From positions 3,472,001 through 3,536,000 of the forward strand of contig NC_135253.1 of assembly GCF_964204865.1 (NCBI RefSeq): 64,000 nucleotides of DNA. Direction: 5' to 3'. Below the pieces are notes generated by a model. That model searched no databases. It was not told the DNA's origin and worked only from the letters and a program-made list of their open reading frames with translations. A program made the translations under genes and the position numbers. Source of the stretch: Styela clava (lineage: Eukaryota). Shown here piece after piece: positions 15,401 to 64,000 of the stretch. The stretch's first letter is position 1. Each line of letters starts with the position of its first letter.

Positions 15401-18400
15401 AATTTGCGATACACATATATATTTTAATATCCTGACATGTACCGCAAAAACAGTGCAAGTTTCTGTAGTCAGTTTGTTAAAATAGGTTTTGTGCAAGTGC
15501 AATTAGGAATTTTATAATAAAATGTGTATATTTTGTTTAATATTTAGGTCTCATTGGGTGTTGATTTATCGAGTGAAATTGGATGACTTTAACCTTAACT
15601 TCGTATATGCTGGCCATACCGCCGAGCCGAGTTATCCGAGAAACATCTGCGGATAATTAATTTTTCAAAATAATGTTCATTCGTTTTGCCGCTGCGAAAG
15701 TTTGGTCCAAGTTATTGAGCATCTTTTTTTCTATTCAGCTGTTTAACGATCGCAGGTTTAAATCACTTAGTTGGGATCATACAGCGATAGAATTCTGGAC
15801 ACAAAATGGCTGGTGTGACGTCACACGTGCGCTTAATAACGTTACTAATGCATGTCCTTACTTGGTTTATAGTCACTTTGCCTTGAATATGGATCTAATA
15901 TTTCCGAATAAATGAACTTCAAGGGGAAGGATGTCCCGGCTCGTTAAGCAGCATAATTATTAAACTACGTCTCCTTGCACTATGAAATGACATTCGTGAT
16001 TTCACTTTTACATTCTGTATGTACAACGTGTAATTTCAGTGTGGTAAACTACTGGACCATGCATTCATTGCGTAAACGTGTCATCGAACTCGCAATGAAA
16101 AGTAGAACCGATGCGTTGTCATTTTTTCAACCAAATATTTATTTTAGATAATACTTGTCTGGATTCCAATGTTTGGTGTGAAGGATCCACATCCCATCGA
16201 CGCTAAAAAATGCGGGAATTGTGAAGTAACTTATGACAGAAACAAGGTGAATTCTATTCAAATTCCGTCTTAAATTATATTTTTACCTTGATGTATTTAT
16301 ATATTGATGTATTTATTTCAAAAATTTCAGGTTGTACATTTTTGCGCATAAACAGTTGAAAATGTTTTGATCTTTTAGCATAGTTAGTGTTAGTGGTGAT
16401 AGAAATATGTTGCCATGTTCACTGAATTAAAATATCAGAACTGAATCAAATGCATTTTTTTAGGTAGCATTATTTTAACTGAAATATCGTTTAAATTTTT
16501 GTTCGAATTATATACAATTCTCAGTATGGTGGAAATCATAGGTATATAATATAAAAAATATATGAATGACTGCGTGATACTATTCACCCGACTTCTATTC
16601 AAATGCAGATAAATGACGAGAAAACTGGGGCAGTTGTGTTTCACTTTGATGCAATTAGAGCTAACAACATGCCATCTACGAGGTAGGTCCAAAAATTTGA
16701 ATGCTAGTTGAAATTCAATATGCAGAAAGCCAGTGGGCTCAGAGTAGGATCAACTTATGCTTATGTGTTTCATCTAATGCCATTTTAACACGGGGTGTGT
16801 GTTTCATATTTCCAATACTAACAAGTTTCAAAACCTTCCTTACTGAGTTATAAATATATCGTTCAGGTTCCATTCTTTCCAAAACAGCTACAAAAATATT
16901 ATACAGTGATGTTTATTCGTTTACGGATTTCTCTTCAGAAACCTTAGTCAACTTTACATATACTGGGACCTGGAATCGACTGCAACCCTGCGCGTCGTCA
17001 GAGGACAGTCCTTACAGTTCGAGGACAATTTTCATTTTAATGGGACCATGACATACAGGTAAGGTTCCTTTAGATATTGCCAAATCTAAAATTTATATGA
17101 AATCTTTTAGATAGGTTTTTTGTTTTGTTTCTAGTCATATCTATGTTGCAAGAGATCAACACACAAATAAATAGACACAAAACTACCTTATGCATCTTTG
17201 TCATATGTCGTTTGTGGGGAGTCAGCTTTCCATTTCTGCCGTGTCGCATTTTTTCTAAAAGCCCACAAAACTTCGCGGTGGCTCAACAGCTACATGAACA
17301 TTATCAACAATAAATTTATCAACATGTCTAAAGTCACAAAAATCGATCAAATATATTGAACTTCATTGTTAATCAATTTTATCTTGCTCATAAACATAAT
17401 CCAGGCGAAGGTCGCTACGCTACCCGCGAGGGAAATGTAAGGAAAAGATTTGAGTATAAAAAAGCGGATGTTATATAATGAATTTGATGGTTGCACCGGG
17501 TCGTTGCGCCGGACGAATGGTCGTCCGGCGCACTGCCCCCAGTCCCTTTAGTCCATTAAGTAGTTTAAATAATACGTCATAAACTGATCACTCTTAATGG
17601 AAGTCGATTTCTATCAATTTTAGGGTCCGTGTTCACTCAACCGTGACGAAATTTTTTTGTCATTATCTTCACTGTATATACCTTGTGTGGCCCAAATATG
17701 ACATCCCCATCTATTACCATTCTCGAGATATGACCTAAAATCACTGGAGCGTGACTGACATGTGGGAGAAAAAAATTCTACCTAAAACTGATTCGAATAA
17801 TTTTTCCGATCATGCCCATGCCTTCAGATTCTTGATAAGACCTCTCTGAAGCCGGCAAACGGCCAAAATCACTAGACCGTGACGGAGGCATGGGAGGAAA
17901 AAAATTCCTTGAAAAAAGTATTAAACTAATTTTTCTCAACCTACCTATATACTTTTTTTACTCAATATCACAATTCCGAAGCGCAACATTCCGAAGTCAC
18001 TGGAGCTTTACGGGGAAGGGGAATCCCCAAAGTTCAGGTGGTGAAATATTCTATTAATTAGTCTCTTCGATATTTATCCATCACTTTGCCCAAAAACCGA
18101 TGGCAGTTCCCCCACCCCTAATAGTACTTGTATAAATTCCCAATACTCGGGTATGAATATGTTCATGAGCTGGGCCTTTTTTGGCGCTGATTCATGTAGG
18201 CTGCTGTCCGACAAGTGATAGGTAATAATAATACATTCTCGAGCTCGAACACAATTTTAGCTTTCATAGGAATCTTGGCACGTAGGTCTTGGATAGTGTC
18301 CACATAACCCAGGAAATTTCATTGCGATCTGGCCAGAGGAAGGGGGTTTCTGTGAGTTGGAGGCGGGTACCTGTCACTGAAGACACACTCGAATAACTTT

Positions 18401-21129
18401 GTGATTTAGAGGTTTAGCGTCGTTTTCCAGGATGGCAAAGCGTTTCTCCGATCATTGCAAACTTCCAAGTATACTTTTGGCAGTGAGGTTCGTGGTCCTG
18501 AATTAGAGTAGTTAGACAATACTTCTGAATTTTAAACCTAACATAACCAATCAATTTTGTACATTTACATGTCTCTTTGTGCATGTAGTCATATTTAGTA
18601 GACATCAAACCCAAATTGTCATACATTTAATATTTTCCAATGGGAATGCCATGGGATGGGATAGGACAGGCATAAATTGCTATGGGCTGAAGTGGGATGG
18701 GACAAAAAGATATGACCCATTGACAAGCTTGCGTATCTGTAAACACACATCTACGAATGTGGTGTGAGAGCCTCTAGTCTAGAGTCTAAAGATTGTTTCA
18801 TATTGCGTTTACCTACAAATTCGCGATCACAAAATTGCGCTATATTTGTAAATATTTACATTATACTTTTTTATTGAAAGGCACTTCTCAAAAATAAAAA
18901 TATCTCATGTTTTCATGCGGTGAAAACGTGATATTTGTCAGTATTCATAGTTTTCCTACTCCATCGACAAGAGTTTAATCAACAAGAGTTTATTATAATA
19001 TTTAACCCATCGTGGATCGCCCTGTATAAACATGTTTGCAAAATAACGCCTTCCAAAGAAAGGCCTATTCAAAAAGCATTTTGCATTATTATGTGAAATG
19101 TTACGGTATTCTTTTCAATAAATGATTAATATTTACTCAATCGAATTTTATTTTTTTGAAAACGAAATCACCACATCAGGGTGTAGAATAAATCCCTAAT
19201 TTCATGTATCTATAGCTAAGTAAATTTGAAGCACCCAAGTTGCGTATTTTCAAATTTTTACAGGCGGGATTCGGATTTCTATCAAAGTTATGAACACGGA
19301 TATAATGTGGCAAGAATCTTGGAGGAAAACACTCGTACACCCGAAGAACTGCTCGCTATGAAAACCAAACTATCTGTAGCAATTGTCTCAAACTGTGGCT
19401 ACACTCCTGGAGCACGCACTCGAATAAAAATGCTCAAGGAGCTTATCGGATTGGGATTTAAGCTAGAAGGATTTGGTGGATGCTTTAAAGGTGGTAAATT
19501 TGCTAATGGTAAAGGCCGAGGCGAGCCGGAATTCTTCGTTGAAGTGAGGAAATATAAATTCTATTTTTCGTTTGAAAATTCTCATCACTGCAAAGACTAC
19601 ATTACTGAGAAGTTTTTCAATAATGCCATCAGATCATTGACTGTACCTGTTGTATGGGGAGCAAATAAAAAGGATTACGAAGCAGTGGCCCCACCAGGAT
19701 CATTTATATTTGCTGAAGATTTTGCTTCTATGAAAGATTTAGCAGATTATCTCAATTATCTAGATAAGAACGACACGGCATATCTAGAGTATCTTAAGTA
19801 AGTTATTACGATCATTAAATAAGTTCTACTACATTGTTTTTCTAACGCTCGAGATGGTGAAAAAAAAATAAGCCTAAAACTATAGAGTATAAGGGTACTC
19901 CCGCAGTATGTCTACCAGGTTATGGTTAGACCATAATTTTATTCTGATTTTTAGTACTATTACGAGTTCGGTGGCTGTCTGTGTTAGCCAAGTGAATATA
20001 CCATACCCCCTGTCCGTAGGTTTCAGTCCCTTCACCCAACTTGATGTGAAGTGGGCGAACAAAATTAGTTACCTTCATATTGGTACACACTACACACGCT
20101 TCTGGAGGGCCGTATTGAGAACATTATTATGTGTGAATTTTGATATATAAATTGACTAAATTATCCGTTTATCCGTGATGAATTTTATCAACGGAAAATT
20201 TGATGAAAGTCCAGTTGGCTGCCGATCCATGATATGTTTTGTGACCGAATTTATTTAGAGTTCTGTTACTTGCCACAAGCTGCTGAGATTAATCAGATAT
20301 TGATGATTCGATGCGAGCCAATAACATAATGGTTTTCGTGGTTCTTATCGCGCGATTATTTTAAAAGATAATTGAATACAACGTTCGCCGTTCGTTAACA
20401 ATTTCTATATTTGTTTTATTTAAGTAGTATTTTTGAATTTAGGGTTCATTAGACGAATTCTTTAATTTAACTTGCTTAATTTACAATGCAGTTGTAAATT
20501 CCGTTACTGAAGTATGCGCACCAAGATGGCGCACAACCTGATGTTATGCGACATCTTGGTTGCGCACACTTCAGGAGTACCGAAATTTGACTACATTTTT
20601 GGATTCGCATCGTTTTATTCTCCAGAGTAGACTATTTCAATATGTTAAAAACTCAAAAAAGTTTTTTGGAGTGTCATAATTGACTGTGATACTGTGTTAT
20701 AAAAGGCGCGGAAATATCTTCGGCTTGTCGCATCAATTTACTCATTTGACTCCAACTCCGCCAGCTAGCATATGCTGTTAAACGAACCGTAAAATCGTTA
20801 GTCGTTAGTATATACGTATACTTATCTGTTCAATTGTGGGTTGTTATACGTATACGTCTTTTATATAGGTAAGTTTGACCCCTCATTTTCCTTGTTTCAG
20901 GTGGTTGACGATGAAGCCGAGTGACATGCCACAGTACGGAAGAGCAAGAGAATGGTGTTCAATATGCAGAGCTTTGCATGGAATCAACTATGATGACAGT
21001 TACAGTCCAAAATATAATAAGACGAACCCAGTTAGGCCCTTATTTACAGACGGTGTAGCCCCTAGAACTGTTGAACACTTAATAGACTGGTATTACGGAG
21101 AAGATAATCCCGAGTGTTTTTCTAGGTAA
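12484..21129 (+). CDS. GT10 alpha-1,3/4-fucosyltransferase, copy B (intact, 495 aa, type II membrane protein)
   Basis: Exons 12484-12915, 16148-16246, 16609-16682, 16939-17058, 19264-19797, 20901-21129 total 1488 nt in one open frame. N-terminal TM ILAFLTVVIIFMEITMV, Thr-rich stem, IILVW, FNGTMTYRRDSDF and YKFYFSFENSHHCKDYITEKFF motifs. Confidence 0.95.
13189..15880. mobile_element. 2.7-kb non-autonomous DNA transposon, P- or hAT-superfamily-like, in FUT B intron 1
   Basis: 21-bp TIRs caaagtggctataaaccaagt / acttggtttatagtcactttg (1 mismatch), perfect 8-bp TSD ccttgaat (13181-13188, 15881-15888). Absent from the duplicate intron (~33000). No transposase ORF seen. Confidence 0.88.
20506..20578. 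mobile_element. Palindromic mini-element copy, loop partly deleted
   Basis: ctgaagtatgcgcaccaagatg...catcttggttgcgcacacttcagg; same family as 3368-3458. Confidence 0.7.
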
Positions 21130-22149
21130 AGTTATAGACCAGGCAAATTGGCTACAAAATTGAGGTGGTTTGAACACTCTGCTTGAAAATGATGAATAAT
21201 TAGGATTTGAGTTGAGAAAATAATTTAAATCTTTCCATTTGCTTTCTACAAATGCTTATAATAATGCGATGGGGCGGAGATACTGATGAAATTGCTGGCT
21301 CCCTATGCACTATGCAAAAACACAAGCTGTTTTTAGCGAGGTTGTAATATTGACTCGTGTATAAGGCCGGATTGGAGTCTTCTGGCCGGTACATGCAATT
21401 GTCCCCTAAGTTTCTTAAGCATCGAATCGACGTGGCCTATATAACGGGGAAATATTGACGGGATCGATGAATTTCTGCACGTGCCCATGGGAAAGCATTG
21501 AAGACCCCACATCATAAATTTAATAAAAACACATTATCATATACCAAGTAAAATATATTATATCTTCCACTGTTTGCAAAATTTATTGCTTCATGTACGA
21601 AAATTAGAATAGTTGTAACCTTCCACGATTTCATATTTCTATGCACGATTTTATTAACGATGACATTAAATAAAACAAAAATATTCATCGTTATTACAAG
21701 TTTCCTATTTACTTAATATATAATGTCCGAATGACAAAACGATTATTTGGAAGTGTTTACTTTCTTACTCAATTCTTACCTTGTTATACGTGACAATATT
21801 AAATGTTTGTGGTGCCCTATTGTTTTGGATTAAAAGTAGAAAATAAGTGTTTAAATATAGGCTTATTTGCATTGTTCTGACCGTTTATAGTCCTGGCTGG
21901 AGCTTACTCCCGATATCTGTGTCATGCGATGCCAGTGAGATGCCGCCAAAGTGGCCTTCTTTTATTAACTGCGTAGCTTTCTTTCTTATTAGATCTTTAT
22001 TGATGATTTTTTTATTGACTATTGATTTGCACTCGAAGGACGTCAGTAGGAAAGATAAATATATGCACGTGAACAAAATAAATCATTTCAGACCGAGTGA
22101 GTGATCATTTCAAATCTTATAATTCAACCTCCGAACGATTTCATTTATT

Positions 22150-24224
22150 CTACCCAACTGCGCTGACTGGTCCAGGACATGGCAAACTATTGTCAGCTTT
22201 TAAGACAAATTCATGTTGGCACCCATTTGGCAGAAGTATAGCTTCGCACTCGTCAGGTATGGTTGGATTTTCCATGCTAGAAATAGAATGTTTACGTTAT
22301 TAATGTGGCCATTGGTAAAAACAGTACATTTTAAGATACTAGAAATAGCAATTACGTTATTAATATGGCCATTGGTACAATCAGTACTTTTTAAGATGCT
22401 AGAAATAACAATTACGTTATTAATGTGGCCATTGGCAAACAGTACTTTTTACTATTCAACAATGAAGTTTATAAGAAGCGTATTCAAATATGTTTTGACA
22501 TGAGTTCAATTAATTTACAATGCATTGACTTCAATTTCGCTTTAAACTATAATAAATAAATTATGTAATTATACAGTATGTGATTTAAGGCAGATTAGGG
22601 AATCTTGGATGAAAGAGAAATCAAGTGGCAGCTTTAAACACTGGATTATATTGTAACCATATGAGAAATTGATAGCCTTAGCAAGTAAGGGGCAAGAATT
22701 TTAATGTGGTTGGTCGACCCAAAGAGTTTGTGATATGGGTTGCTTCAAGCGGCTTTGGTAAACGCGTGCGTACGGCAATCCGCGAAGTACTGTAGTCCAC
22801 GGAATCTGCATTACAATCACTGGTTTCACAAAACGTCACCCTGGCCTTTTCCAAGTGATTCAGAACAGAAATTCGTTTCATCGATAACGTACAACAAATG
22901 TAAAAAGTCGATCGCCATGCCATTATGATTAAATATAGTTTATCAGTGAATTTATAAAAAAATGTATATTTTTTGCAACCTTCTATGGAATTTGAAAAAC
23001 AATGCGCAAGTGAAAATTTCATTAAAATGCACTATGAAGTTGCATAAAGTGTAATTTATAATTTTATTCAACTTACTTGTTACAGCATGACCATGCAACT
23101 GAGTCCACGATTCGATAAACAACGAACACTTCAGACCGTTCATCTTTGTTTTTATCAGTTACAGTTGTGAAGCCAAATGGACATGATGTTGGGTGGATAT
23201 TTTCAAGATTTATAAAATAGGTTTTCGTTTCCTTGGTTGTTGGTAATGCATTTTGTACAGGAAGAGTGCAGTTTAAATAGGTCTAAAAAACGATTAAATT
23301 GAGTAACATGAGATGCATGTTGTATCTATAATTGTCCCCTCCCACGAGTATAAAAGTATCCTTGCTTCGTCGATGCAAATAATGGTTGTTCTATCTTATA
23401 AGGGCAGTTACATGATTCGGAGCTCTGCAAACTGGAAAGTCGATATGAAGTTCTCCTCTTACATTCGCAATAGTTAAAAATTTCAAAGTTCATTTTCTTT
23501 TTACGCTTATTGCGATACACATACATCGTCCGTCGTTTGATTAAAGACCACAAAACCTGAGGCATTTGGTATGGTATTAAATAATTTTTCTGTATACAAA
23601 CGCAACGGCAAAAGTTCTCAAAAATAAAAAAAGTGTCGCGCACCAAAAGTTTGCAGAGGTCAGCAACGTTCCCTCCAAGCTGCGCCGCCGCGTAGCTGGC
23701 CGATAATCCCCGCGCAGTACTTTCGTTCTGCCGCGCACTGGAGTTTATAAATAAATTCTGTGTTCGTTTAAAATGTTGTGTTCTTTTTTATTTTTTCGCG
23801 CAGACTTTTTTGAACCTCACATGGCCTTCTATTTCGCGCAACTAGGCAAGCTCTTAGAGGGTACGTTGGAGGTCAGACATAAATATAGATCTCAAATCTT
23901 CCCATTCTGCCCATATGTCATATTTCGATTTGGATGGTAATCTGTAGCGACATTATAAAACTATAGCACTGTTAGTACCGTGAAATTTTGATATTGATGT
24001 AAAATATAAATACACACCCCATACGTTACTGGATCGCAGCTACACTCAACACAGGGACCAGCGTTCCATTTTTGTCCTACATGATGATACTTCGTGAATG
24101 TCATTGAATCAGTTTTTGTAGTATGCAAACACCCTCGACCCAGTTGAGTTTCTCCGTAATCGCATGCTGCGTTGGCACAAGCGAATGTGACAATCCAAAC
24201 AGAAATCAAGATGGAGTATTTCAT
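22150..24224 (-). CDS. Secreted beta-microseminoprotein/small serum protein-like protein, type 1, copy 1 (179 aa)
   Basis: Minus-strand exons 24224-24018, 23282-23077, 22276-22150 total 540 nt. Signal peptide; W-x4-C-x2-CxC ... CC ... PDEC ... C ... PCPGPVSAVG* Cys pattern of the PSP94/MSMB family; 12 Cys in mature chain. Confidence 0.88.
22274..22450. repeat. 3 x ~60-bp tandem repeat overlapping the exon-3 splice acceptor
   Basis: Unit atgctagaaatagcaattacgttattaatgtggccattggtacaaacagtactttttaag; also present at ~39039-39220. Confidence 0.9.
23664..23868. mobile_element. 205-bp hAT-type MITE
   Basis: TIRs caacgttccctccaag / cttagagggtacgttg, perfect 8-bp TSD gaggtcag. Empty site in the duplicate (~40378, gaagtcag). 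Confidence 0.9.
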
Positions 24225-24316
24225 TCTGGACTTTTTTGATGAAAATGAACACTGTATCACAAAATCAACGGTAGCACCTAACTCAATTATGTAGACGTTA
24301 TGCATTGCAACGCGGA

Positions 24317-24342
24317 TTTATACTTTTCCATTTGTTACGTCA
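24317..24342 (-). promoter_or_regulatory. Putative TATA box with upstream CRE-like TGACGTAA for the minus-strand MSMB-like gene
   Basis: Minus strand reads tgacgtaacaaatggaaaagTATAAAtcc ~95 bp upstream of the ATG; conserved in the duplicate. Confidence 0.5.
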
Positions 24343-26157
24343 CATCGACACAAAAGTTAATCGTAGACAAGAGAAAGTGCATATGACGACGGCAATAAAA
24401 AAATCACAAACACTTTAGTAGTAAACAATATTCTGCTGAATTCTAATTTTAGCTCGCAACTGCTTCTCACACATGAATCAGAAAGTGATTCAGAATTTAT
24501 CATTGTCAAATTTATTAACCATCAATACTGGTACTTCAATTGTTTTTTTCGTGTTTTAGTGCTTATACAGTTAGCGATATTCTTTTGAATTGAAAGCCAC
24601 AGGAGATAAACACGCGATAAACTAATCATTTTTTAATCAATTGTACAATATAAAGATGATTTGTACCTGAGATGCCGGTTTAAATGAATAGTGACAGAAC
24701 CATCTAAAATCGGTCAACCGATTGATCATTCCAAGCTTTAACTATTACGGGTGGACAACATTGAACGAATGACTATGGTCGATGAATGTCATTTCATAGT
24801 TACTATTTCACAGCTATCCTAATAGCATTAATTCATAACTCGGTATAGAAAGAAAGAAATAATTAATACTTCAATCGTTGTGTCTTTTTTTTTTATATAG
24901 TATTTGTTTTTGCAAAGCAAGGCTTGAATAACACTTAACTGGCTAGCAATAAGTTACAGTTAAGCTGGCCTTTAGGGCTCCATGGAAACACGGAATAAAC
25001 ATCCTTATCAGATTATTAGTAGAACAAAATTAACCGAGTACGGTATTTCCATTTGTCCATCATGTAATTCGGTTGAACAGACCTCACCGACTATTCGACT
25101 TAGCTCAAGTGTAAATGCAAATGAAAGCGCATTAAATTACTACCAACTTCAATTAATGTTAAACTGATATCTTTTTATTGCAGATTCATGGAAGATGTAT
25201 CATATAGTGGGAAAGTCCTACAAACACCTGAGGCGTTAATCGTGCATACTTAGAATAGAAACATCGTACTTTATTATTAGTGTGTCTAACTTAAAATAGA
25301 TCATAATTATTTGTTAGGTTTTCATGTAAAGCTTGTCGCAAAATATTTGCAAGAATTCTTGACGTCATCTGAATGATATCACATATAAATCACTGTCTAT
25401 GTTTTGAATAATTGTTTCAATTTCACCAGAAAAATATTATTTTTGTGATAAATTAGAATTTCAGTTTCTACCATGGTAACAATAACAACGATAACATAAC
25501 TAGATTGTTTTAAAAATTGCACACTTGACATTTTTCTGTGAAAATGATTTGACTTGACTTACACATTTGAACAAGTTTGCATGAAAGTGTTTAAAGCAAA
25601 TGAAGTGCAAGCTGGTATGATTAAATGCAAATCAAGTAGAGGAAATGATATTTCAAATTTGTCCGTCCTAGCACAATATGGTACATGTCGCTTCCAACTG
25701 AACCCCACATAGACCTGATTGGCTCCGCAATTCTTATTTAAAATAGTGATCTGAGATATATTTTTAATACTTTTGGTATCACTTCAGCAAGAAAAGTGCT
25801 GGCCATAGTTTAGCCGTATGTGATGTACGAGAGTCACACGTAATGAATTTAAACTAAAGCAGCATAAGCGTCTCACTCTCAGACGGCATTGAAAATCCCA
25901 ATTGCTCTGTGGTCTCATAAGATGACGCTTTTTCCTAAAATACCAAATATTGTGCTTTAAAAATGTCTTTCCGCGGTTATTCACAAATTCGAATTGAGCT
26001 AGTTTATTTTTGTCAATAATTAGTATTCTTACTGATTCTCGGGAATACGAAAACAGAGTGTTCACGACGGGCTGTCTCGAAAACAAAAATCGGTACTTTC
26101 GTTCTAACACCAAACGTAAACACCGTCGCGTCGCATATTTTTGTGCCACGGAAAATA

Positions 26158-26164
26158 TATAAAA
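26158..26164 (+). promoter_or_regulatory. Putative TATA box for the plus-strand MSMB-like gene
   Basis: ggaaaataTATAAAAg ~120 bp upstream of ATG 26282. Confidence 0.5.
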
Positions 26165-26281
26165 GACTTGCGTTCACATCAAACGAAACATAACTTAAAC
26201 CAGTCAAAAGAAGCGTTTGTCGTAATATCAAATTGCATTGTATTAATTTGCACGTATTAGATTTTTTTTACTTCAAGTACA

Positions 26282-27158
26282 ATGGAAAGTTGCATCCAGA
26301 ACGCAGTTTTCCTAACTTTAATCTCATTCGCGATTTCTGTTCGCATAAACGCCAGTTGCGAATACGACATATTCGAAGACGATTGGTGTAAACATACTGT
26401 AAAAACCGCTACAATGAGATCTACAATGTTTTACCGAGCTGGTGAAAAGTGGAAAGATGGGCCGTGCGTTGATTGCAGTTGCGGTCCGGAGACTTACAAG
26501 GTATGTATCATTACAATGATATTAATAATTGTTTGGAAAATGAGAAAGTTTGATGATTTTTTTTTTGTTAATTTTCGCAGACTGTCCTGAACTGCTCGCT
26601 GGAAGTGGAAAATGGAAAGGCAAGATCTGATGAAGCCGAATCCTATTTTATAAATATTGATAATGTGTATCCAACATCATGTCCGTTTGGTTTCACCGAA
26701 ATTACAACAGAAAACAGAGATCTGGCATCTCAAATGTTTATAGTCTATCGAGTTGTTGACACAGTTTCCAAAACGTGCTGTACCAGGTGAGTGATGTTAA
26801 AATTAAATCACTGAGCCATGTAATATATATGAATACTTTCTACTAAGCACATATGTAACAGTAAATTCTTTAGTTTACAAACAATGAGCAGGCAAGCGTC
26901 ATGTGCGATAGTAACCTTCGCAAATAGGAGTTCAGAAAGCAAAAATGTGAAACAGGATTCCTATTACTACAAGTTCATAATACAATACCATAGTTTGTTT
27001 ATAACTCCAACGTATCGCGATTATGTTTTTGCAGAATGAATCCGAGTGAAATCCCCGAAGAATGTGAAGCAATACGCTCCGACGAATGCGAATATAAATT
27101 TGTTCTGAAATCGAACAATGGTATTCCATGTCCTGGACCAATTTTTATGTCTGGATAA
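26282..27158 (+). CDS. Secreted beta-microseminoprotein-like protein, type 2, copy 1 (182 aa)
   Basis: Exons 26282-26500, 26581-26786, 27035-27158 total 549 nt. Signal peptide; WKDGPCVDCSC...KTCCTR...PEECEAIRSDECEYKFVLKSNNGIPCPGPIFMSG*. Same exon phases as type 1. Confidence 0.9.
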
Positions 27159-27829
27159 AGAAAGAAACATGTCGATAAACTATGAAAATAATTGACATGA
27201 TAGAAACAAGGCGTTAATTCTATATCTGCACCTTTCTGTTATTTTATTGTGAAATTGTGAAAAGAAATCAAATTTGGGTGATTTTATTATCTTGCTTATA
27301 TATAACAATATCCGTAATGTTTTATAAATAAATGTTCTATTGCATCCAATGCGTTGCTATTGCTGTGACAATTGGTAGATGCAAAAATACATGTGTATCG
27401 TGCCTTTATGTCGAAGTTTTGTGTTACATCCTGCGAGAGCTTTATGAAAATACGCAAAAACTTTTTTAACAGGCCGACATTTAGTGTCATCGAGAAGCAT
27501 CTCGTAGAATAGGATTGTTATACTTCCCAGAAAAGAAGAAAACCGACAAGACATAGTATAATTATATAGCAAACCTTTTGTCCAGTCACTTACTTCATTT
27601 AGGTATAAAAAATCCGGATGTATTGTGTACTGAACTGTAAGTTCTTTTGTTCTTTTTCCTTGTTCCTATTTCGGATCCGCATGTGTCTGTTGCCACAAGG
27701 ATGCTTGACTGAGAGAGTATTATAAAGATAAACAGGAATACCATAATCTCTTTCCACGGAATAGCAAGTAAAAAAAAACGCCCAATTGTTTGTTCCCTGA
27801 ATATGGGAATATGAGAACCACGAGAAACG

Positions 27830-28005
27830 TTGTACCACGTTTCCCACTTGACACGTGGTACAAGTGGGACACGTGGTCCAGTGGGACATGTGGGACACGT
27901 GGTACACGTGGGAAAAGTGGTAGACGTGGGACAAGTGGTAGACGTTGGACAAGTGGTACACGTGGGACAAGTGGTACACGTGGGACGAGTGATACAAGTG
28001 GGACA
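27830..28005. repeat. Remnant foldback arm (9-bp units caagtggga/cacgtggta) ending at the duplication junction
   Basis: Counterpart of 44606-44819 but lacks the terminal TIR; joined to FUT exon-1 sequence at 28009. Confidence 0.88.
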
Positions 28006-28050
28006 TTACATGGAGATTACAATGGTGAACAGATGGTAGACATTAAATAC

Positions 28051-31000
28051 CGGTGTCTCAAAAATGTCGTTTCCCACTTGTCCCACTTGTCCCACGTGTC
28101 CCACGTGTCCCACTTGTCCCACGTGTCCCACGTGTCCCACTTGTCCCACGTGTCTCACTTGTCCTACGTGTCCCACTTGTTCCGCTTGTGCCACTTGTCC
28201 CACTTGTCCCACATGTCCCACTTGTATCCCTTTTGCCACGTGTACCACTTGTCCCACCTGTCCCACTTGTACCACTTGTATCCCTTGTCCCACGTGTCCC
28301 ACCTGTCCCACTTGTAACACTTGTACCACTTGTCCCACGTGTACCACTTGTACCACTTGCCCGACGTGTCCCACTTTTCCCACTCGTCCCACATGTCCCA
28401 CGTGTACCACTTGTCCCACTTGCCCCACGTGTCCCACGTGTCCCACTTGCCCCACGTGTCCCACGAGTCCCACCTGTCCCACGTGTCCCACTTGTACCAT
28501 GTGTACCACTTGTATCCCTTGTGCCACGTGTACCACTTGTACCACGTGTACCACTTGTACCACTTGTCCCACATGTCACACTTAACCCACTTGTCCCACT
28601 TTTTCACGGGCCCCACGTGTCCCGCGTGCCCCACTTGTCCCATCGATTTTTATTGCCGATATCGGTCGGGGGAGGAGGTATCGGCCGTGTTACTCTGTGC
28701 GTTATCACTGTAGCGCTATAAACCTCGCCAGACTTTTTTCGTATTCACCATATTTTTTTTTTGGTTATCGCTGATAAATACGAATTTGTAACTATTATTG
28801 AATGCAATTCAGTAAAGCGTATTTTCTTCCCTCGGTTCCTGACTCAATCACTTTTATTATACAAATCAGAGCGCATTGTAAAGCAAATCAGGTACAGGTA
28901 AGAATTAACCGACGGCTATCGCTAACAGGTTGAACCGATAAATGCAAGTATTTTTATTTTTGTTTTCTTTTTGCACCTATCATATTTTTAATTTCTAATC
29001 TTGCATAAAGCACGCCCATATCGTTTTTCGTAAATTTAGAATTGTCGAACCAGATAAGTACGACTGGTAATTATTGTATTCCATGGAAATTTTACGAGAT
29101 ATTTGGGACTGGAAGAAATATTATTTTGACCACGTAGAAATGCCATTATTGCCGTATTTCCGAGCGGCATCCGAGTAATAGTTTCACATTTAATGCCTTT
29201 GATCGGCGCTACATGCGAGCGTGTTTTTGTACTTTGTTTTTGTACGATTATGACGCTACTGACATCCGCGAGTTATACTACTCTCCCAAATTAGTTTTCA
29301 CGACTTCTAATGTTTTCATTTTCAAATGTGGGTACAACTGACTACGGATTAATGGTCGATATTTGAAATAGGGCTTGCGAAATATTCATTATAAACCGCC
29401 AGGTAAAGAGAGGCGTACTAAACGTATTTGGATTTTCGCTGTGAACGACGCATCCTTTTCAGCTTATTAAACGCCTTACGTCGTCGTGAATTGACCCCCC
29501 ATCCCCCGTTGGAAATTTTTTAGCTGTGCCCATGTCGGTATTTATCTGATATCAACCCGGCTATATTCCGGCACTGATAGACCAGGTCATAATTTGTCAC
29601 CCATGTTATCAATAAACAAAAATTTCGTGCTTGCTATTACCAGAAATTCTATTTTGCTGAATGAAAGTGCGACCCGCGACCAGCAAACGTGTTGTTGCGA
29701 ACAAGCGCAAGGATTGTGGATTGTGACGTCCACCACGAAACGAAATTGTTTGTCGAACATGCAAAAAACCAGACCACATACAGAAGCACTGCAACTTTGG
29801 GAAACAAAATGAACGAACGGAAGAGACGACGAGACCAATTATTACGTCAAGACCAAGTGGAACAGAAGCCGCGCCATCTTCACCTGAAGTCCCACATGGA
29901 CGGAAAAATGCACAAAAATTTAGATTTCACACCGGGCGAACGGACTACTACAACCTTAAGGTCCATATATGATAGATTCAGATTAAAAACGTATGACCCA
30001 CCAAAATTACACGTAGCACGTGATTGGCACTCCACACATCTCTTGGACCGCACATTGAAAAAACACTTTACGAATATCGAACGACAATCTGCATACCTCA
30101 TAGCCTTGGATGGGTTTTTGTTTGGAAATAGAAAGTGGCGTTACAGAATTGTCCGCCGAGATGCAAACTATATCGACCATTAAAACTAAATTGTAAATTT
30201 TGCGCGAACAATAATGATACAACGAAACACATATTTCTTGAATGCCCAAAATACCTAGTAATACATAAGAAAATTAGGCTGACTCTGGAAAAAATCTGCG
30301 GCAAAAAACTAGATGTTCCCCCACAATCAATTTTTGACAATTCCTATTCAGGCGAAAACAAATTGGCAATTCTGAAAATGTACAGTATTCTTAAATTGAA
30401 ACCCATCACTCTCAAATATACTATGGATAGAGAAAACAGATATGTGAATCAAACAGATATATCTTCAATACTCAGAACTGTCTACCGGAAATTTAAAGAC
30501 TGGATTTTTATAACCATAGACCGATATGGTTCGGCAGATGTGTACGCTCTATCCAAAAACTGGAAATCAACGTTAGATGGATGATATAGAGCGTGCGACA
30601 TCAAATGACAAATCTACAGGATGCACAACATGGAGCCAACTCATCAGTCACCACAAATGGTAGCTGAATTTCATCTTATCAGTGCCCGATACGCCAGCAC
30701 CGCTGTGTAAAAAGCTTGTGCTTGCAAATCGCCTCATGGTCATCGAATGGTTGTTGTAACTACCCATGTACCAGCTAAATTGGCCGATGTATTTGTTTCG
30801 AAATTTGGCGGATTTAAAAAAAATATAAGTAATACCATCCTAAATCGCGGATTTGATGTAAGGAAGCTTACCATATTAGTTTGGTAAAGACGATCCATTT
30901 TTCAAAGAAGAATGAGTCTTATACTTCCGTTGGCATTATCGGTCATGGAGGCATTGGGCTGGATTTCGGTAATGTCATCCTGATGACCTGATCCGTCATA

Positions 31001-32355
31001 AGAAAAAAAAAGTTTTGTTCACATATATCTCATTCGCCGAATATTTTGTCCATATGATTCCGTTTATCATACTTCTCATTCACCAGATATTTTGATATAT
31101 ATATTTCGTTTCCCTCATAAAACAGTCGTCGTGATTATTCGCTCGTTAAAAAAAAACGACTTGTGAGTGAGACTTGTCTGTGGCGTATAATTTTCAATCC
31201 ATGGCAATTAACTTAATTATGTCTAACTTAACTCGCGTTACGACTTTTAAATACATTGATACTCTAAAAAAACAAATGTAATATGTGGTCATAAACACAT
31301 GAGATAAACTGTCTAATTATATTTTATTTTGATAGGTATCTTTGCAATCTTGTTAATTCGTTATCGCCATTAGGAATCCGTATTTTTGCAATTTTGCGGA
31401 TTAGAGAAATCTGTACCTGTAACTACGATCCGTTCAATTGCAATTCTGCCACTCGGATTATTTTTAAGATATAACCGTTATTATCCCACGACGTAAAATC
31501 TATTTTAGTACAATGAAAGTCGATTGGATTCATTAATTTATCATCATAATTAATTTACCTTTACAATCCGCGTCGCGTTTTCAACTTTGTATAATGATAA
31601 CACTGAAACTTTCGGCAGCAATATAAAGAAATGGATAAAAAGATAAATCCAACGCGCAATTATTTTTTTTATTTAAGTGATGGTATGGTTTCCAACGCTA
31701 ACCAACCATAATACCAAAACAATCGACCATTTTAGCAAAATGCACGCAGTATTAGCGACAAGTGGGACATGTGGTACAAGTGGGAAATGTTGTACAAGTG
31801 GGAAACGTGGTTCAAGTGTGACACGTGGTACAAGTGGTACACGTGGTACAAGTGGTACAAGTGACAAAAGTTGTACAAGTGGTACACGTGGTACAAGTGG
31901 TACACATGGTACAAGTGGTACATGTGGTACAAGTGGTACACATGGTACAAGTGGTACAAGTGGTACACATGGTACAAGTGGTACAAGTGGTACACGTTGT
32001 GCAAGTGGTACACATGGTACAAGTGGTACACATGGTACAAAGGGTACAAGTGGGACACGTGGGACAAGTGGTACAAGTAGTACACGTGGGACAAGTGGGA
32101 CAAGTGTTACACGTGGGACAAGTGGGAAAGGTGGGACACGTGGGACAAGTGGGATAAGTGGGATAAGTAGGACAAGTGAGACAAGTGGGACATGTGGGAC
32201 AAGTGGGACAAGTGGAGCAAGTGGGACACGTGGGACAAGTGGGACACGTGGGACAAGTCGGACACGTGGGACAAGTGGGACACGTGGGACAAGTGGGACA
32301 CGTGGGACAAGTGGGACACGTGGGACAAGTGGGACACGACATTTTTGAGACACCC
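28051..32355. mobile_element. Foldback-type (MULE-like) transposon, 4.3 kb, non-autonomous
   Basis: Termini (c)ggtgtctcaaaaatgtcg / cgacatttttgagacaccc. Inverted arms of ~600 bp made of 9-bp units (28051-~28641, ~31757-32355). TSD attaaatac (28042-28050, 32356-32364; 11 bp if the terminal base is assigned to target). Uninterrupted site visible at ~12594 in FUT B. Confidence 0.93.
29680..30584 (+). mobile_element. 3' fragment of non-LTR retrotransposon ORF2 (zf-RVT type, L1/Tx1-like) inside the foldback element
   Basis: Overlapping ORFs 29689-30183 and 30135-30584 join by a frameshift near actatatcga (~30170). CKFCANNNDTTKHIFLECP matches the C-x2-C-x8-H-x4-C finger found C-terminal to RT. Confidence 0.75.
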
Positions 32356-35300
32356 ATTAAATACCACCAATCCTTCAGCAACCAGCAGACTGAACATGAA
32401 CAAATGGAATATAAAGAGTTCTTTCCGCGAACTTGAAATTGACTTCAACGGAGGTATTCCCTCTATTAAAAAAGAGATAGATGATATTTTGGATATGAAA
32501 GGTGGCGATTATAATTCAAATGAATCACCGGAAGTTACAAAGGATGCAACACACACACAAACAACTACCATACGTTCTTCATTTACAACAACTAATAATG
32601 ACTCGATGTACATACAATCAGAGCTGATTCGTAGGCTGAAGGCTTCGACTGACAGAAAGGTTAGTGACTCCTTGTTATTACGTTCATATGTAGCTCAAAG
32701 CAAAAATAAATGAGCCAAATTACTACAAAATAATCCACTTACAAGGTCGCCTTCCGTATTAGATTCCTTTTAGTAAATTCAAAAAGTAAATTTCTACTTT
32801 AACCGGCTAGTATTTGGAATCTTATTCGATTGAAAAATGCATTTCGTGGATTAGAAAGATGAAATTACTGACATGAAAGTTAGATTACCTTATTGAAATA
32901 TTATAATCCTAACATCTAGTAAAATGATATACTCAACAAAATAATATTATATAAATGTATGTTGTCAAAAATGTCACTAAACATCGGGACACGATTGGCT
33001 ATAGTTACTTTACATATGGATCTAACATTTTGGAATAAAATGAACTTCAAGGGGAAGGATGCCCCTGCTCGTTAAGCAGCATAAATATTAAATTACGTCT
33101 ACTTGCACTATGAAATGACATTCGTGATTTCACTTTTACATTCTGTATGTACAACGTGTAATTCCAGTGTGGTAAACTTCTGGGCCATGCCTTCATTGCG
33201 TGAACGTGTCATCGAACTCGCAATGAAAAGTAGAACCGATGCATAGTCATTTTTTTAACCAAATATTTATTTTAGATAATACTTGTCTGGATTCCAATGT
33301 TTGGTGTGAAGGATCCACATCCCATCGACGCTAATAAATGCGGGAATTGTGAAGTAACTTATGACAGAAACAAGGTGAATTCTTTTCAAGTTCTGTCTTA
33401 AATTATATTTTTACCTTGATGTATTTATTTCAAAAATTTCAGGTTGTACATTTTTGCGCATAAACAGTTGAAAAGGTTTTGATCTTTTAGCATAGTTAGT
33501 GGTAATAGAAATATGTTGCCATGTTCACTGAATTTAAATATCAGAACTGAATCAAATGCATGTGTTTATGTAGCATTATTTTAACTGAAATATCGTTTAA
33601 ATTTGTGTTCGAATTATATACAATTCTCAGTGGTGGAAATCATAGATATATACTCGTAATATAAAAAAAATATCAATGACTGCGAGATACTATTTACCCC
33701 AATCCTATTTGTGTACACAAATGCAGATAAATGACGAGCAAACTGGGGCAGTTGTGTTTCACTTTGATGCAATTAGAGCTAACAACATGCCATCTACGAG
33801 GTAGGTCCAAAATTTGAATGCTAGTTGAAATTCAATATCCTGAAAGCCAGTAGGCTTAGAGAAGGATCAACTTATGCTTATGTGTTTCATCTAATGCCAT
33901 TTTAACACGGGATATGTGTTTCATATTTCCAATACTAACAAGTTTCAAAACCTTCCTTACTGAGTTATAAATATATCGTTCAGGTTCCATTCTTCCCAAA
34001 ATAGCTACAAAAATATTATACAGTGATGTTTATTCGTTTACGGATTTCTCTTCAGAAACCTTAGTCAACTTTACATATACTGAGACCTGGAATCGACTGC
34101 AACCCTGCGCGTCGTCAGAGGACATTCCTTACAGTTCGAGGACAATTTTCATTTTAATGGGACCATGACATACAGGTTAGGTCCCTTTAGATATTGCCAA
34201 ATCTAAAATTTATATGAAATCTGTTAGATATGTTTTTTGTTTTGTTTCTAGTCATATCTATGTTGCAGGAGATCAACACACAAATTAATAGACACAAAAC
34301 TACTTTATGTATCTTTGTCATATGTCGTTTGTGGGGAGTCAGCTTTCCATTTCTGCCGTGTCGCATTTTTTCCAAAAGCCCACAAAACTTCGCGGTGGCT
34401 CAACAGCTACATGAACATTATCAACAATAAATTTATCAACATGTCTAAAGTCTCAAAAATCGATCAAATATATTGAACTTCATTGTTAATCAATTTTATC
34501 TTGCTCATAAACATAATCCAGGCGAAGGTCGCTACGCTACCCGCGAGGGAAATGTAAGGAAAAGATTTGAGTATAAAAAAGCGGATGTTATATAATGAAT
34601 TTGATGGTTGCACCGTGTCGTTGCGCCCAGTCCCTTTAGTCCATTAAGTAGTTTAAATAATACGTCATAAACTGATCACTCTTAATGGAAGTCGATTTCT
34701 ATCAATTTTAGGGTCTGTGTTCACTCAACCGTGACGAAATTATTTTGTCATTATCTTCACTGTATATACCTTGTGTGGCCCAAATATGACATCCCCATCT
34801 ATTACCATTCTCGAGATATGACCTAAAATCACTGGAGCGTGACTGACATGTGGGAGAAAAAAATTCTACCTAAGTGACAAGTGATAGGTAATAATAATAC
34901 ATTCTCGAGCTCGAACACAATTTTAGCTTTCATGGGAATCTTGGCACGTAGGTCTTGGATAGTGTCCACATAACCCAGGAAATTTCATTGCGATCTGGCC
35001 AGAGGAAGGGGGTTTCTGTGAGTTGGAGGCGGGTACCTGTCACTGAAGACACACTCGAATAACTTTGTGATTTAGAGGTTTAGCGTCGTTTTCCAGGATG
35101 GCAAAGCGTTTCTCCGATCATTGCAAACTTCCAAGTATACTTTTGGCAGTGAGGTTCGTGGTCCTGAATTAGAGTAGTTAGACAATACTTCTGAATTTTA
35201 AACCTAACATAACCAATCAATTTTGTACATTTACATGTCTCTTTGTGCATGTAGTCATATTTAGTAGACATCAAACCCAAATTGTCATACATTTAATATT

Positions 35301-37152
35301 TTCCAATGGGAATGCCATGGGATGGGATAGGACAGGCATAAATTGCTAAGGGCTGAAGTGGGATGGGACAGAAAGATATGTCCCATGGACAAGCTTGCGT
35401 ATCTGTAAACACACATCTACGAATGTGGTGTGAGAGCCTCTAGTCTAGAGTCTAAAGATTGTTTCATATTGCGTTTACCTACGAATTCGCGATCACAAAA
35501 TTGCGCTATATTTGTAAATATTTACATTATACTTTTTTATTGAAAGGCACTTCTCAAAAATAAAAATATCTCATGTTTTCATGCGGTGAAAACGTGATAT
35601 TTGTCAGTATTCATAATTTTCCTACTCCATCGACAAGAGTTTAATCAACAAGAGTTTATTATAATATTTAACCCATCGTGGATCGCCCTGTATAAACATG
35701 TTTGCAAAATAACGCCTTCCAAAGAAAGGCCTATGCATTATTATGTGAAATGTTACGGTATTCTTTTCAATAAATGATTAATATTTACTCAATCGAATTT
35801 TATTTTTTTGAAAACGAAATCACCGCATCAGGGTGTAGAATAAATCCCTAATTTCATGTATCTATAGCTAAGTAAATTTGAAGCACCCAAGTTGCGTATT
35901 TTCAAATTTTTACAGGCGGGATTCGGATTTCTATCAAAGTTATGAACACGGATATAATGTGGCAAGAATCTTGGAGGAAAACACTCGTACACCCGAAGAA
36001 CTGCTCGCTATGAAAACCAAACTATCTGTAGCAATTGTCTCAAACTGTGGCTACACTCCTGGAGCACGCACTCGAATAAAAATGCTTAAGGAGCTTATCG
36101 GATTGGGATTCAAGCTAGAAGGATTTGGTGGATGCTTTAAAGGTGGTAAATTTGCTAATGGTAAAGGCCGAGGCGAGCCGGAATTCTTCGTTGAAGTGAG
36201 AAAATACAAATTCTATTTTTCGTTTGAAAATTCTCATCACTGCAAAGACTACATTACTGAGAAGTTTTTCAATAATGCCATCAGAACATTGACTGTACCT
36301 GTTGTATGGGGAGCAAATAAAAAGGATTACGAAGCAGTGGCCCCACCAGGATCATTTATATTTGCTGAAGATTTTGCTTCTATGAAAGATTTAGCAGATT
36401 ATCTCAATTATCTAGATAAGAACGACACGGCATATCTAGAGTATCTTAAGTAAGTTATTACGATCAATAAATAATTTCTACTACATTGTTTTTCTAACGC
36501 ACGAGATGGTGAGAAAAAAACTAAGCTTAAAACTATAGTGTATTTAGGGTACTCCCGCGGTATGTGTACCAGGTTAGAGTTAGGCCATAATTTTATTCTG
36601 ATATTTGGTACTATTACGAGTTCGGGGGCTGTCTGTGTTAGCCAAGTGAATATACCATACCCCCTGTCCGTAGGTTTCAGTCCCTTCACCCAACTTGATG
36701 TGAAGTAGGCGAACAAAATTAGTTACCTTCATATTGGTACACACACTTCTGGAGGACCGTATTTAGAACATTATTATTTGTGAATTTTGATATATAAATT
36801 GACTAAATTATCCGTTCATCCGTAATGAATTTTATCAACGGAAAATTTGATGAAAGTCCAGGTGGCCGCCGATTCATGATATGTTTTGTGGCCGGATTTA
36901 TTTAGAGTTTTGTTACTTGCCACAAGCTGCTGAGATTAATCAGATATTGATGATTCGATGCGAGCCATTAACATAATGGTTTTCGTGGTTCTTATCGCGC
37001 GATTATTTTGAAATATAATTGAATACAACTTTCGCCGTTTTTCAACATTTTCTATATTTGTTTTATTTAAGTAGTATTTTTGAATTTAGGGTTCATTAGA
37101 CGAATTCTTTAATTTTACCTGCTTAATTTACAATGCAGTTGTAAATTCCGTT

Positions 37153-37253
37153 ACTGAAGTATTCGCACCAAGATGGCGCACAACCTGAACTCAGGTTGTG
37201 TACCAGGTTAAGGTTCAGGTTATGCGACATCTTGGTGCGCATACTTCAGGAGT
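37153..37253. mobile_element. Palindromic mini-element copy
   Basis: Same inverted repeat as 3368-3458 with the full loop, opposite orientation. Confidence 0.72.
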
Positions 37254-38914
37254 ACCGAAATTTGACTACATTTTTGGATTCGCATCGCTTTATTCTCCAG
37301 AGTAAACTATTTCAATATGTTAAAAACTCAGAAAAGTTTTTTGAAGTGTCAGAATTGACTGTGATACTGTGTTATAAAAGGCGCGCAAATATCTTCGGCT
37401 TGTCGCATCAATTTACTCATTTATCTATCTCATTTAAATCTATCGTCCAGAACGTACCGTAAAGTCATATGGAAGCTCATCATAAAATCATGTTTCTAAT
37501 CAGTTAGCCGTTAGTATATACGTATACTTATCTGTTCAATTGTAGCCTTGTAGGGTGTTAGACGTATACGTCTTTAATATAGGTAAGTTTGACACCTGAT
37601 TTTCCTATTTTCAGGTGGTTGACGATGGAGCCGAGTGACATGCCACAGTACGGATGAGTAAGAGAATGGTGTTCCATATGCAGAGCTTTGCATGGAATCA
37701 ACTATGATGACAGTTACAGTCCAAAATATAATAAGACGAACCCAGTTAGGCCCTTATTTACAGACTGAGTAGCCCCTAGAACTGTTGAACACTTAATAGA
37801 CTGGTATTACGGAGAAGATAATCCCGAGTGTTTTTCTAGGTAAAGTTACAGACCAGGCAAATTGGCTACAAAATTGGGGTGATTTGAACACTCTGCTTGA
37901 AAATGATGAATAATTAGGATTTGAGTTGAGAAAATAATTCAAATATTTCTATTTGCTTTCTACAAAGGCTTATAATAATGCGATGAGGCGGAGACACTGA
38001 TGAAATTGCTGGCTCCCTATGCACTATGCAAAAACTCAAGCTGTCTTTATCGAGGTTGTAATATTGACTCGTGTATAAGGCAGGATTGGAGTCTTCTGGC
38101 AGGTACATGCAATTGTCCCCTAAGTTTCTTAAGCCTCGAATCGACGTGGCTTATATGACGGGGAAATATTGACGGGATCGATGTATTTCAGCAGGTGCCC
38201 ATGGGAAAGCATTGAAGACCCCACATCATAAATTTAATAGAAACACATTATCATCTTTTCCAATACTCAAAGTAAAATATATTATATCTTCCACTGTTCG
38301 CAAAATTTATTGCTTCATGTACGACAATGAGAATAGTTGTAGTAAACTTCCACGATTTCATATTTCTATGCACGATTTTATTAACGATGACATTAAATAA
38401 AACAAAAGATATTCATCGTTATTACAAGTTTCCTATGTACTCAATATATAAACATGTAATGATGCTCCGAATGACAAAACGATTATTTGGAAGTGTTTAC
38501 TTTCTTACTCAATTCTTACCTCGTTATACGTGACAATATTAAATGTCTGTGGTGCCCTATTGTTTTGGATTAAAAGTAGAAAATAAGTGTTTAAATATAG
38601 GCTTATTTGCATTGTTCTGACCGTTTTAGTCATGGCTGGAGCTTACACCCGATATCTGTGTAATGCGATGCCGGTGAGATGCCGCCAAAGTGGCCTTCTT
38701 TTATTAACTGCGTAGCTTTTTTTCTTATTAGATCTTTAATTGATGATTTTTTTATTGGTTTGATTGATTTTTTATTGACTATTGATTTGCACTCGAAGGA
38801 CGTCAGTAGGAAAGATACATATATACACGTGAACAAAATAAAATAAATCATTTCAGACCGAGTGAGTGATCATTTTAAATCTTATAATTCAACCTCCGAA
38901 CGATTTCATTTATT

Positions 38915-48834: not shown

Positions 48835-48853
48835 TCACGTGACAGGAGATTGG
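48835..48853. promoter_or_regulatory. E-box (TCACGTGAC) plus inverted CCAAT box upstream of HHIP-like copy 1
   Basis: tcacgtgac at 48835-48843 and attgg at 48849-48853, ~110 bp before the ATG. Motif match only. Confidence 0.35.
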
Positions 48854-48957
48854 TTGCATCCGACATAAACAGGTATCGGATTTTGAACGCCAAAGGCTAT
48901 ATCTAACCTAGTTCAAGTTTATGTAAGTGACCGTTGCAAATAAATAAAGAATAGTTC

Positions 48958-55512
<6,555 letters not shown>

Positions 55513-58857: not shown

Positions 58858-64000
<5,143 letters not shown>

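Follow-up and report, generated by a model that had tools for sequence, protein, structure and literature searches.

The window, a stretch of 64,000 nucleotides from Styela clava, holds four genes of three exons each, two of type 1 on the plus strand and two of type 2 on the minus strand, and exon 2 is 206 nt long in all four. In type-1 copy a, exon 1 (26282..26500, +; 219 nt) encodes a signal-like hydrophobic peptide, the cysteines of an MSMB N-domain (26, 36, 62, 65, and 67), and six residues of what we describe below as a stalk, and it ends at a phase-0 donor. Exon 2 (26581..26786, +; 206 nt) is bounded by AG and GT, entered in phase 0, and left in phase 2. It supplies 65 insert residues, with an NCS sequon and two extra cysteines (Cys78 at 26593-26595 and Cys107 at 26680-26682), followed by the ancestral CC pair (26776-26781), and its donor falls within codon CC+2. 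Exon 3 (27035..27158, +; 124 nt) encodes an MSMB-like C-terminal domain (Cys 152, 160, and 174) and the stop. The product is 182 aa long, with cysteines at 4 (in the leader), 26, 36, 62, 65, 67, 78, 107, 139, 140, 152, 160, and 174. Type-2 copy a lies head-to-head with this gene, ∼2.1 kb away, and has its exons at 24018..24224, 23077..23282 (insert, NCT sequon, and CC), and 22150..22276, all on the minus strand. The b copies are at 43059..43277, 43357..43562, and 43811..43934 (type 1, +; RefSeq XP_039247910.2) and at 40521..40727, 39839..40044, and 38915..39041 (type 2, −).

Two genes became four through a tandem duplication of ∼17 kb (15887..44781), in which 15887-28005 matches 33014-44781 in blocks that are 92%–97% identical. 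Each duplicated unit contains both MSMB-like types and a GT10 fucosyltransferase gene, and the introns and intergenic DNA of the units are 89%–100% identical. The two units could reflect genuine copy-number variation or a haplotype left uncollapsed; residues of copies a and b are mixed in an older RefSeq protein (P0001) and in a contig of run X2. Between the type-1 copies (26282-26500 vs. 43059-43277), exon 1 has four differences, all of which change amino acids and all of which are in the leader. In intron 1 all 79 aligned bases match, and exon 2 is identical (no nucleotide differences). Gene conversion between the two copies is a possible reading of this pattern.

Both type-1 joints (exons 1-2-3), which an earlier note on this DNA had proposed to check in RNA, are present in all four of the runs examined (four studies, out of 17 runs listed), where the RNA status of the runs is the tool's guess. 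The joints skip exactly the 80-nt and 248-nt GT..AG introns. No joint that skips exon 2 is listed among the type-1 contigs of these four runs, which as contigs drop rare forms. If exon 2 were skipped, a phase-0 end would meet a phase-2 start, so that the frame would shift and the CC pair would be lost. The two type-1 translations are identical to S. clava RefSeq proteins XP_077968379.1 and XP_039247910.2, both named “uncharacterized,” and the type-2 joints are those of the RefSeq models (LOC120325812) rather than of reads. In the four window proteins, hydropathy over nine residues reaches 2.5–2.6 at the N terminus, compared with at most 1.64 elsewhere. The proteins are likely secreted.

The earlier note had counted ∼70 residues between the CxC and CC motifs, mostly from exon 2, where the usual MSMBs have about six. 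The count is 71 in all four genes and six in solved MSMBs, and the two added cysteines that it had reported (in LNC and TSC) are present in every copy. Its ungapped exon-2 alignment of types 1 and 2 was reproduced (35/68 and 36/68 identical residues), far above 100,000 shuffles (mean 4.6, maximum 16). The insert is a real, spliced insertion of 65 residues, most of it encoded by exon 2. Symmetric exon shuffling was considered as a source of exon 2 and ruled out by the phases (0 and 2); the ancestral CC also lies within this exon.

Probable relationship to MSMB/PSP94

The protein very probably descends from MSMB/PSP94 and would retain the five ancestral disulfides (26-140, 36-67, 62-160, 65-139, and 152-174). 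Homology is likely, given weak profile matches, ESM features, cysteine spacing, and the position of an intron. A profile of nine sequences searched against the PDB placed chicken MSMB3 (6rwc) at the top (E = 0.0033), with two separate stretches that flank the insert, and six of its seven matches were MSMB-family chains. The exon-3 profile matched MSMBs only (four of four; best 3ix0, E = 0.013). For the exon-1 profile, the best match was a fibronectin type I (FN1) module (E = 3.5e-4), and no MSMB chain was listed; the N-domain of MSMB itself resembles FN1. By ESM features, PSP94 clusters ranked first (0.91, with 191 of 256 features in common). The Atlas model aligned over 88–89 residues to clusters of MSMB size, with TM scores of 0.58–0.63 by target, below the tool's bar for naming a family. 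In a second structural comparison, PSP94 (3ix0) was the only chain at Z ≥ 2 (Z 2.0, rmsd 2.4, 36 residues aligned, model positions 145-182). The aligned part is the C-domain, which in the two-domain MSMB fold has two strands and follows a Greek-key N-domain.

Position by position, Cys 26, 36, 62, 65, 67, 139, 140, 152, 160, and 174 correspond to cysteines 2, 12, 30, 33, 35, 42, 43, 57, 66, and 80 of MSMB3, and all ten are invariant in the four family alignments in which this was scored (A2, A4, A5, and A6). The spacing shared with MSMB3 as described in PMC8167871 comprises nine residues between the first two cysteines, CxxCxC, CC, and 13 residues before the last cysteine. Chicken MSMB3 has exon lengths of 3/85/103/130 (PMC3268785), and if the last of these ends at the stop codon, its last intron is in phase 2 at codon CC+2 (mature codon 45), exactly as in the Styela models.

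The earlier note had suggested testing the flanks against a PSP94 profile, and the outcome was mixed: weak matches to solved MSMBs were obtained as above, but the Pfam cut-off was missed. PF05825 (PSP94) did not match the whole protein, six aligned proteins, or any exon set in Pfam scans, and a PF05825 search of the genome gave six weak matches, none of them at these MSMB-like loci. Pfam fn1 (PF00039) was detected in two of 20 members, with a best E of 0.01, below the curated cut-off. VWC (PF00093) scored 14.8–15.3 bits on exon 1 against a cut-off of 27.6, covering only profile positions 4–31 of 57 and thus falling short of the full ten-Cys VWC pattern. The likeness to FN1 and VWC modules consists of these weak scores for the W..CxxCxC part of exon 1, all below curated cut-offs, whereas neither module includes the first cysteine or a C-terminal domain of the MSMB type. 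The VWC matches (E 0.007–0.035, below cut-off) could be taken to mean that the flanks are unrelated cysteine-rich pieces or that exon 2 is absent from the mature transcript, so that the gene model would be an artefact. We regard this as extremely improbable: exon 2 is in the joined contigs of all four runs, which refutes the idea for type 1, its omission would break the frame and delete the CC pair, RefSeq models concur, and exon 3 finds MSMBs alone.

Set beside MSMB/PSP94 as a whole (MSMB, MSMP, USM, and snake SSPs; PF05825; PDB 3ix0, 6rwc, 2iz4, and 6imf), the Styela proteins are alike in the hydrophobic leader, the cysteine at predicted mature position 2, the ten cysteines in order with CxxCxC and CC, the C-terminal domain pattern that ends close to Gly, and the last intron (CC+2, phase 2). 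They also resemble them in having tandem, lineage-specific copies (e.g., 14 in opossum) (PMC3268785). They differ in having 69–102 residues rather than six from CxC to CC, plus two extra cysteines; in a phase-0 intron within the insert, whereas the phase-1 intron of vertebrates has no equivalent in the window genes; and in a mature chain of ∼155–190 aa instead of 87–94. Part of the family carries an N-glycosylation sequon (clade A, see below), whereas MSMBs are described as nonglycosylated (PMC8167871), and the Styela proteins fall below the Pfam cut-off. One MSMB with a lengthened exon is known, marsupial MSMB1, for which the main text of PMC3268785 has a longer exon 3 and the supplement gives 154 nt for exon 2 and 106 nt for exon 3. 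In that case the gain is ∼16 codons, probably outside the CxC-CC turn, and the description in PMC3268785, as far as it goes, includes no extra pair of cysteines. Because all 30 of the gene models assembled for the genome (see below) have 69–102 residues from CxC to CC, we file the Styela proteins as a derived MSMB variant rather than as canonical members. The MSMB family itself is already known; what appears to be new is the 12-Cys, long-insert form on its scaffold.

A family of 32 loci in two clades

The 377-Mb genome contains 32 loci of this kind, four on C4 (the window), 26 on C1, and one each on C3 and C14. With the window exon 2 as the query, 14 matches at 13 loci were found, and a divergent paralogue (P0009) led to the second clade. 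Thirty of the 32 loci could be modeled and counted, and the two whose exon 2 is broken by a frameshift or stop were left out. In six of the 30 models, exon 1 has no intact in-frame start; these copies may be damaged or may have an upstream exon. All 30 have 69–102 residues from CxC to CC (i.e., 63–96 beyond the usual six), exactly two cysteines within this interval, and a phase-0 intron soon after CxC; the exon finder demanded a cysteine early in exon 2, and copies without one could therefore not surface. The first extra cysteine follows CxC after nine residues in 22 models and after ten in the other eight. Between the two extra cysteines there are 27–59 residues, and after the second there are 25–37, such that length varies mainly between the pair. 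The 12-Cys subfamily proposed in the earlier note is borne out, and is defined by flanking strands of fixed length and two cysteines around 27–59 residues.

In a tree, 11 genes that include those of the window form clade A (support 1.0), and the remaining 19 are grouped as clade B. Ten of the 11 clade A genes have the NC[ST] sequon, as do none of the 19 in clade B, and the motif YFINxxNx(Y/H)PTSCPFGFT is confined to the four window genes. Thus, both of these features, to which the earlier note had drawn attention as conserved, hold for the window (four of four) but not for the family as a whole (10/30 and 4/30, respectively). Clade A proteins are acidic (pI 4.5–5.8 in all 11), and in clade B the pI is at least 8 in 15 of 19. 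Exon 2 of clade A aligns almost without gaps, with 15 invariant columns of 69. No insert-less MSMB was found in the genome using PF05825 and nine protein queries, a search that is insensitive at the level of exons; it returned three weak, unassigned matches (E > 2.8) at C14:15.98 Mb, C3:19.04 Mb, and C19:14.77 Mb.

Some loci have unusual splice sites. At L024 (C1 ∼24.429 Mb, the P0013 gene) intron 1 has a noncanonical GC donor, and at L022 (C1 ∼24.410 Mb) exon 2 is followed by GG, in a copy that also has no start and is missing one cysteine. In at least nine clade B genes, including those on C1 at 15.8–17.5 Mb (L026, L041-L046, and L050), the ATG comes immediately after a pyrimidine tract and AG. 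This arrangement suggests a 5′ intron or a trans-splice acceptor, which would lie three bases from the position of intron 1 in vertebrate MSMB.

Pooled dN/dS (Nei-Gojobori, three gene sets) is below one in every computable region, although dS is saturated in clade B. The stalk has the lowest values (0.27, 0.53, and 0.08 in the three sets), compared with 0.68, 0.79, and 0.18 in the part between the extra cysteines, which we call the head. Identity is likewise highest in the stalk (62%–68%) and amounts to 48%–57% in the head and 49%–59% in the MSMB core. These sequence comparisons support viewing the insert as a functional module under purifying selection, one on which constraint is relaxed in clade A. 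No positive selection on the head was seen in the pooled dN/dS of the three gene sets. With dN/dS below one, head included, nothing points to an arms race. The clustered and broken copies indicate birth-and-death evolution of the family.

A predicted stalk and head

The β5-β6 turn of chicken MSMB3 lies between C35 and C42; the disulfide C33-C42 crosses this hairpin, and C2-C43 reaches β1 (PMC8167871). The Styela insert occupies the position of this turn. An AF2 model of the full protein has low confidence (pLDDT 45.8, pTM 0.29); strands 68-81, 93-98, and 123-136 belong to the region that was modeled best. When exon 2 was modeled alone, pLDDT was 66.5 (range 58–79), with strands (in full-length numbering) at 76-81, 94-98, and 123-129. 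In both models, the end points of the long strands, as read from strand limits rather than from coordinates, sum to 204–205, which is the register that a cross-strand bond between 65 and 139 would impose. At each position from CxC+1 to CxC+8 in clade B, no more than 11% of the residues are turn-formers (G, N, D, P), and hydrophobic runs oppose each other in this same register. Based on the AF2 strands and the clade B residue pattern, the β5-β6 hairpin probably extends as a two-stranded stalk that carries a head closed by Cys78-Cys107. Each strand of the stalk would be ∼10–14 residues long, and the disulfide would clamp a head of variable length. The disulfide-closed subdomain envisaged in the earlier note is thus a prediction (AF2 pLDDT 66.5 for exon 2 alone), and the module resembles an extension of a hairpin rather than a free-standing domain.

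The same cysteines could be threaded in another way. Cys78 could pair with Cys65 to close an FN1-like hairpin, local as in the four-Cys FN1 module, in which case the N-domain would end at 78, the insertion would follow, and Cys107 would pair with one cysteine of the CC. The alignments lend some substance to this, as the MSMB3 CC strand aligns with the LNC motif (LNCSL) as well as with the true CC, making another pairing possible, and exon 1 scores best on FN1 modules (E = 3.5e-4). The spacing from CxC to Cys78 is also fixed (9–10 residues), and Pro occurs at CxC+2 in eight of the 11 clade A genes. Against it, the complete CC pair persists as in MSMB, as does the intron at CC+2, both AF2 models set 68-81 against 123-136 with no local hairpin around Cys78, and clade B is devoid of turn residues where a Cys65-Cys78 hairpin needs them. 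On balance, we consider the alternative pairing improbable, the least likely of the structural options discussed in this section.

Returning to the extended hairpin, the head may be less ordered than the word implies. It could be a flexible tethered loop or a cleavable propeptide, in which the cysteines serve only as a clamp and which adds bulk, charge, or a glycan but no binding site. Head lengths of 27–59 residues, the charge-rich heads of clade B, pLDDT values of just 58–79 in the exon-2 model, and its failure to match any fold at Z ≥ 2 would all fit a loop of this type. However, exon 2 of clade A is near-gapless with 15 of 69 columns invariant, the head is nearly as conserved as the MSMB core (48%–57% vs. 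49%–59% identity), and AF2 gives the isolated exon three strands. A flexible loop or propeptide thus seems unlikely, if marginally less so than the other pairing.

The insert matches no known domain or fold, in agreement with the earlier note, which had proposed none. Foldseek returned nothing at E ≤ 0.001 for the full, low-confidence AF2 model, and a structural comparison of that model gave one unrelated row (Z 2.2). The exon-2 model, also of low confidence, gave nothing at E ≤ 0.001 (Foldseek) or Z ≥ 2 (VIA-align) among 48,161 chains. Sequence searches of the PDB with the insert yielded no matches in one case and a single match at E = 1.3 in another, Pfam scans revealed no consistent family, and an ESM search with the insert alone reached at best 0.78, under the useful range. 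The absence of fold matches does not show that the head has a new fold, although a small new β fold is possible. Origin of the head as an internal duplicate of the N- or C-domain was tried and rejected (hhalign probability ≤1.05%). Between the two clades, the heads have no profile similarity (hhalign probability 0.17%), so the case for their common origin is made by cysteine positions and intron phase.

Distribution and possible roles

A phmmer search of 1.84 billion representatives gave five matches, four from S. clava and one spurious repetitive sequence (P0008) that was dropped. A profile word search gave nine, eight of them from S. clava and one an unnamed Logan protein (P0015), the sole relative found outside RefSeq. 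P0015 is 189 aa long, shares 76% identity with P0009, and likewise has the 90-residue insert region. Because 76% is low for an allele, P0015 may stem from another species. A metagenome scan produced 67 pattern matches, none of which was confirmed. The literature searched, which excludes subscription journals, holds no description of an insert-bearing 12-Cys MSMB, and the earlier note's “possibly undescribed” therefore stands. In the S. clava genome paper (PMC7540406), the terms PSP94, microsemino, and MSMB are absent from the main text, and the accessible text of PMC3268785 gives tunicate microseminoprotein homologues one sentence, with Ciona msmb-like exons listed as 145 and 259 nt.

It could be that the long form is an old and widespread tunicate or invertebrate type of MSMB that is already in databases, and that only its expansion in Styela is new. 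The two clades, with saturated dS and deep divergence within one genome, do imply an old origin, the Logan protein carries the insert, and the wide searches were made before most of clade B was known and are insensitive for this reason, so they do not establish absence from other tunicates. Yet those searches returned almost exclusively S. clava (four of five by phmmer, the fifth spurious, and eight of nine by profile, the ninth unnamed), the PSP94-type Atlas clusters among those listed are 87–119 aa long, and the Ciona msmb-like exons listed in PMC3268785 measure 145 and 259 nt. We judge wide occurrence to be rather unlikely, but more probable than either structural alternative above. It concerns novelty and is compatible with the stalk-and-head explanation.

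In vertebrates, mucosal and reproductive surfaces are the sites at which MSMBs are secreted, and some of these proteins have antimicrobial activity (PMC8167871; PMC7150914; PMC8857485). They bind CAP/CRISP proteins via the edge of β1 and the C-terminal strand (PMC8167871; PMC7150914), and the roles and histories reported for them include CRISP binding, antimicrobial activity, and tandem expansions (PMC8167871; PMC7150914; PMC8857485; PMC5638244). The explanation that we favor overall, and hold with reasonable though not high confidence, is that of an MSMB-derived protein in which the predicted stalk and Cys78-Cys107 head would likely add a variable binding surface, likely a secreted protein of surface defence. 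As the insert sits at a turn away from the C-terminal domain and would project from the opposite pole, the CAP/CRISP-binding edge would stay free. We suggest tentatively that this ancestral edge would remain available while the head makes paralogue-specific contacts at mucosal or haemolymph surfaces. Equally tentative is a role in defence at body surfaces, in which the secreted protein would bind through two surfaces, one of them a head that differs between paralogues. The acidic, sequon-bearing clade of the window and the mostly basic clade would then bind different targets. By analogy with the sea cucumber, where 11 tandem PSP94-like genes are induced during gut regeneration (PMC5638244), a role in tissue repair may also be entertained. 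That cluster is likewise an expansion in an invertebrate deuterostome that was recognized by cysteine topology, whereas the sections of PMC5638244 that describe it mention no insert.

Bovine antibodies with ultralong CDR-H3 regions have a β-ribbon stalk that projects a disulfide-bonded knob from a conserved scaffold. The stalk-and-knob architecture predicted here is alike by analogy only, with no homology, and differs in having one (predicted) head disulfide, germline paralogues, dN/dS below one, and no evidence of somatic diversification. A more ambitious proposal, which we think has a small chance of being correct, is that an invertebrate chordate encodes ∼30 secreted germline recognition proteins of stalk-and-knob form on an MSMB scaffold, each with a conserved base that binds host CAP/CRISP proteins or surfaces and a disulfide-closed head of new fold that reads microbial or self/nonself ligands. 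If so, a germline repertoire, in which head length and charge differ per paralogue, would converge on the geometry of these antibodies.

MSMB/PSP94 proteins are regarded as compact miniproteins with ten cysteines, and their general function is unsettled. The Styela genes indicate that the scaffold tolerates a two-Cys module of 63–96 residues at one defined hairpin turn, in a form that has been kept and multiplied. The paralogues constitute a natural head-swap series in which a role of the MSMB core can be set against that of the added surface. They may also represent a family of secreted defence proteins in S. clava, an invasive ascidian. The 32-locus family is unnamed in RefSeq and missed by Pfam, which suggests that inserted MSMBs may go unnoticed in other invertebrate annotations.

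The remainder of the window contains several other features. Genes for GT10 (α-1,3-type) fucosyltransferases are at 5765-6921, 19220-21129, and 35872-36453, and the two of the three that were scanned match PF00852 (E ∼1e-40). Two of these genes are in the duplicated units, beside the sequon-bearing genes of secreted type. Farther along, at ∼48850-55500 and 58750-63730, are two tandem genes, 84%–92% identical, with weak matches to Folate_rec and GSDH, a layout that we take to be HHIP-like. A LINE-like fragment at 29665-30584, between the duplicated units, matches zf-RVT weakly (E = 0.002). Minisatellite arrays with a 9-bp unit occur in both orientations at 27800-28640, 31757-32340, and 44600-44900, where they raise local GC, and the one at 31.8–32.3 kb adjoins a 91% copy of a membrane-anchored ORF (12481-12936).
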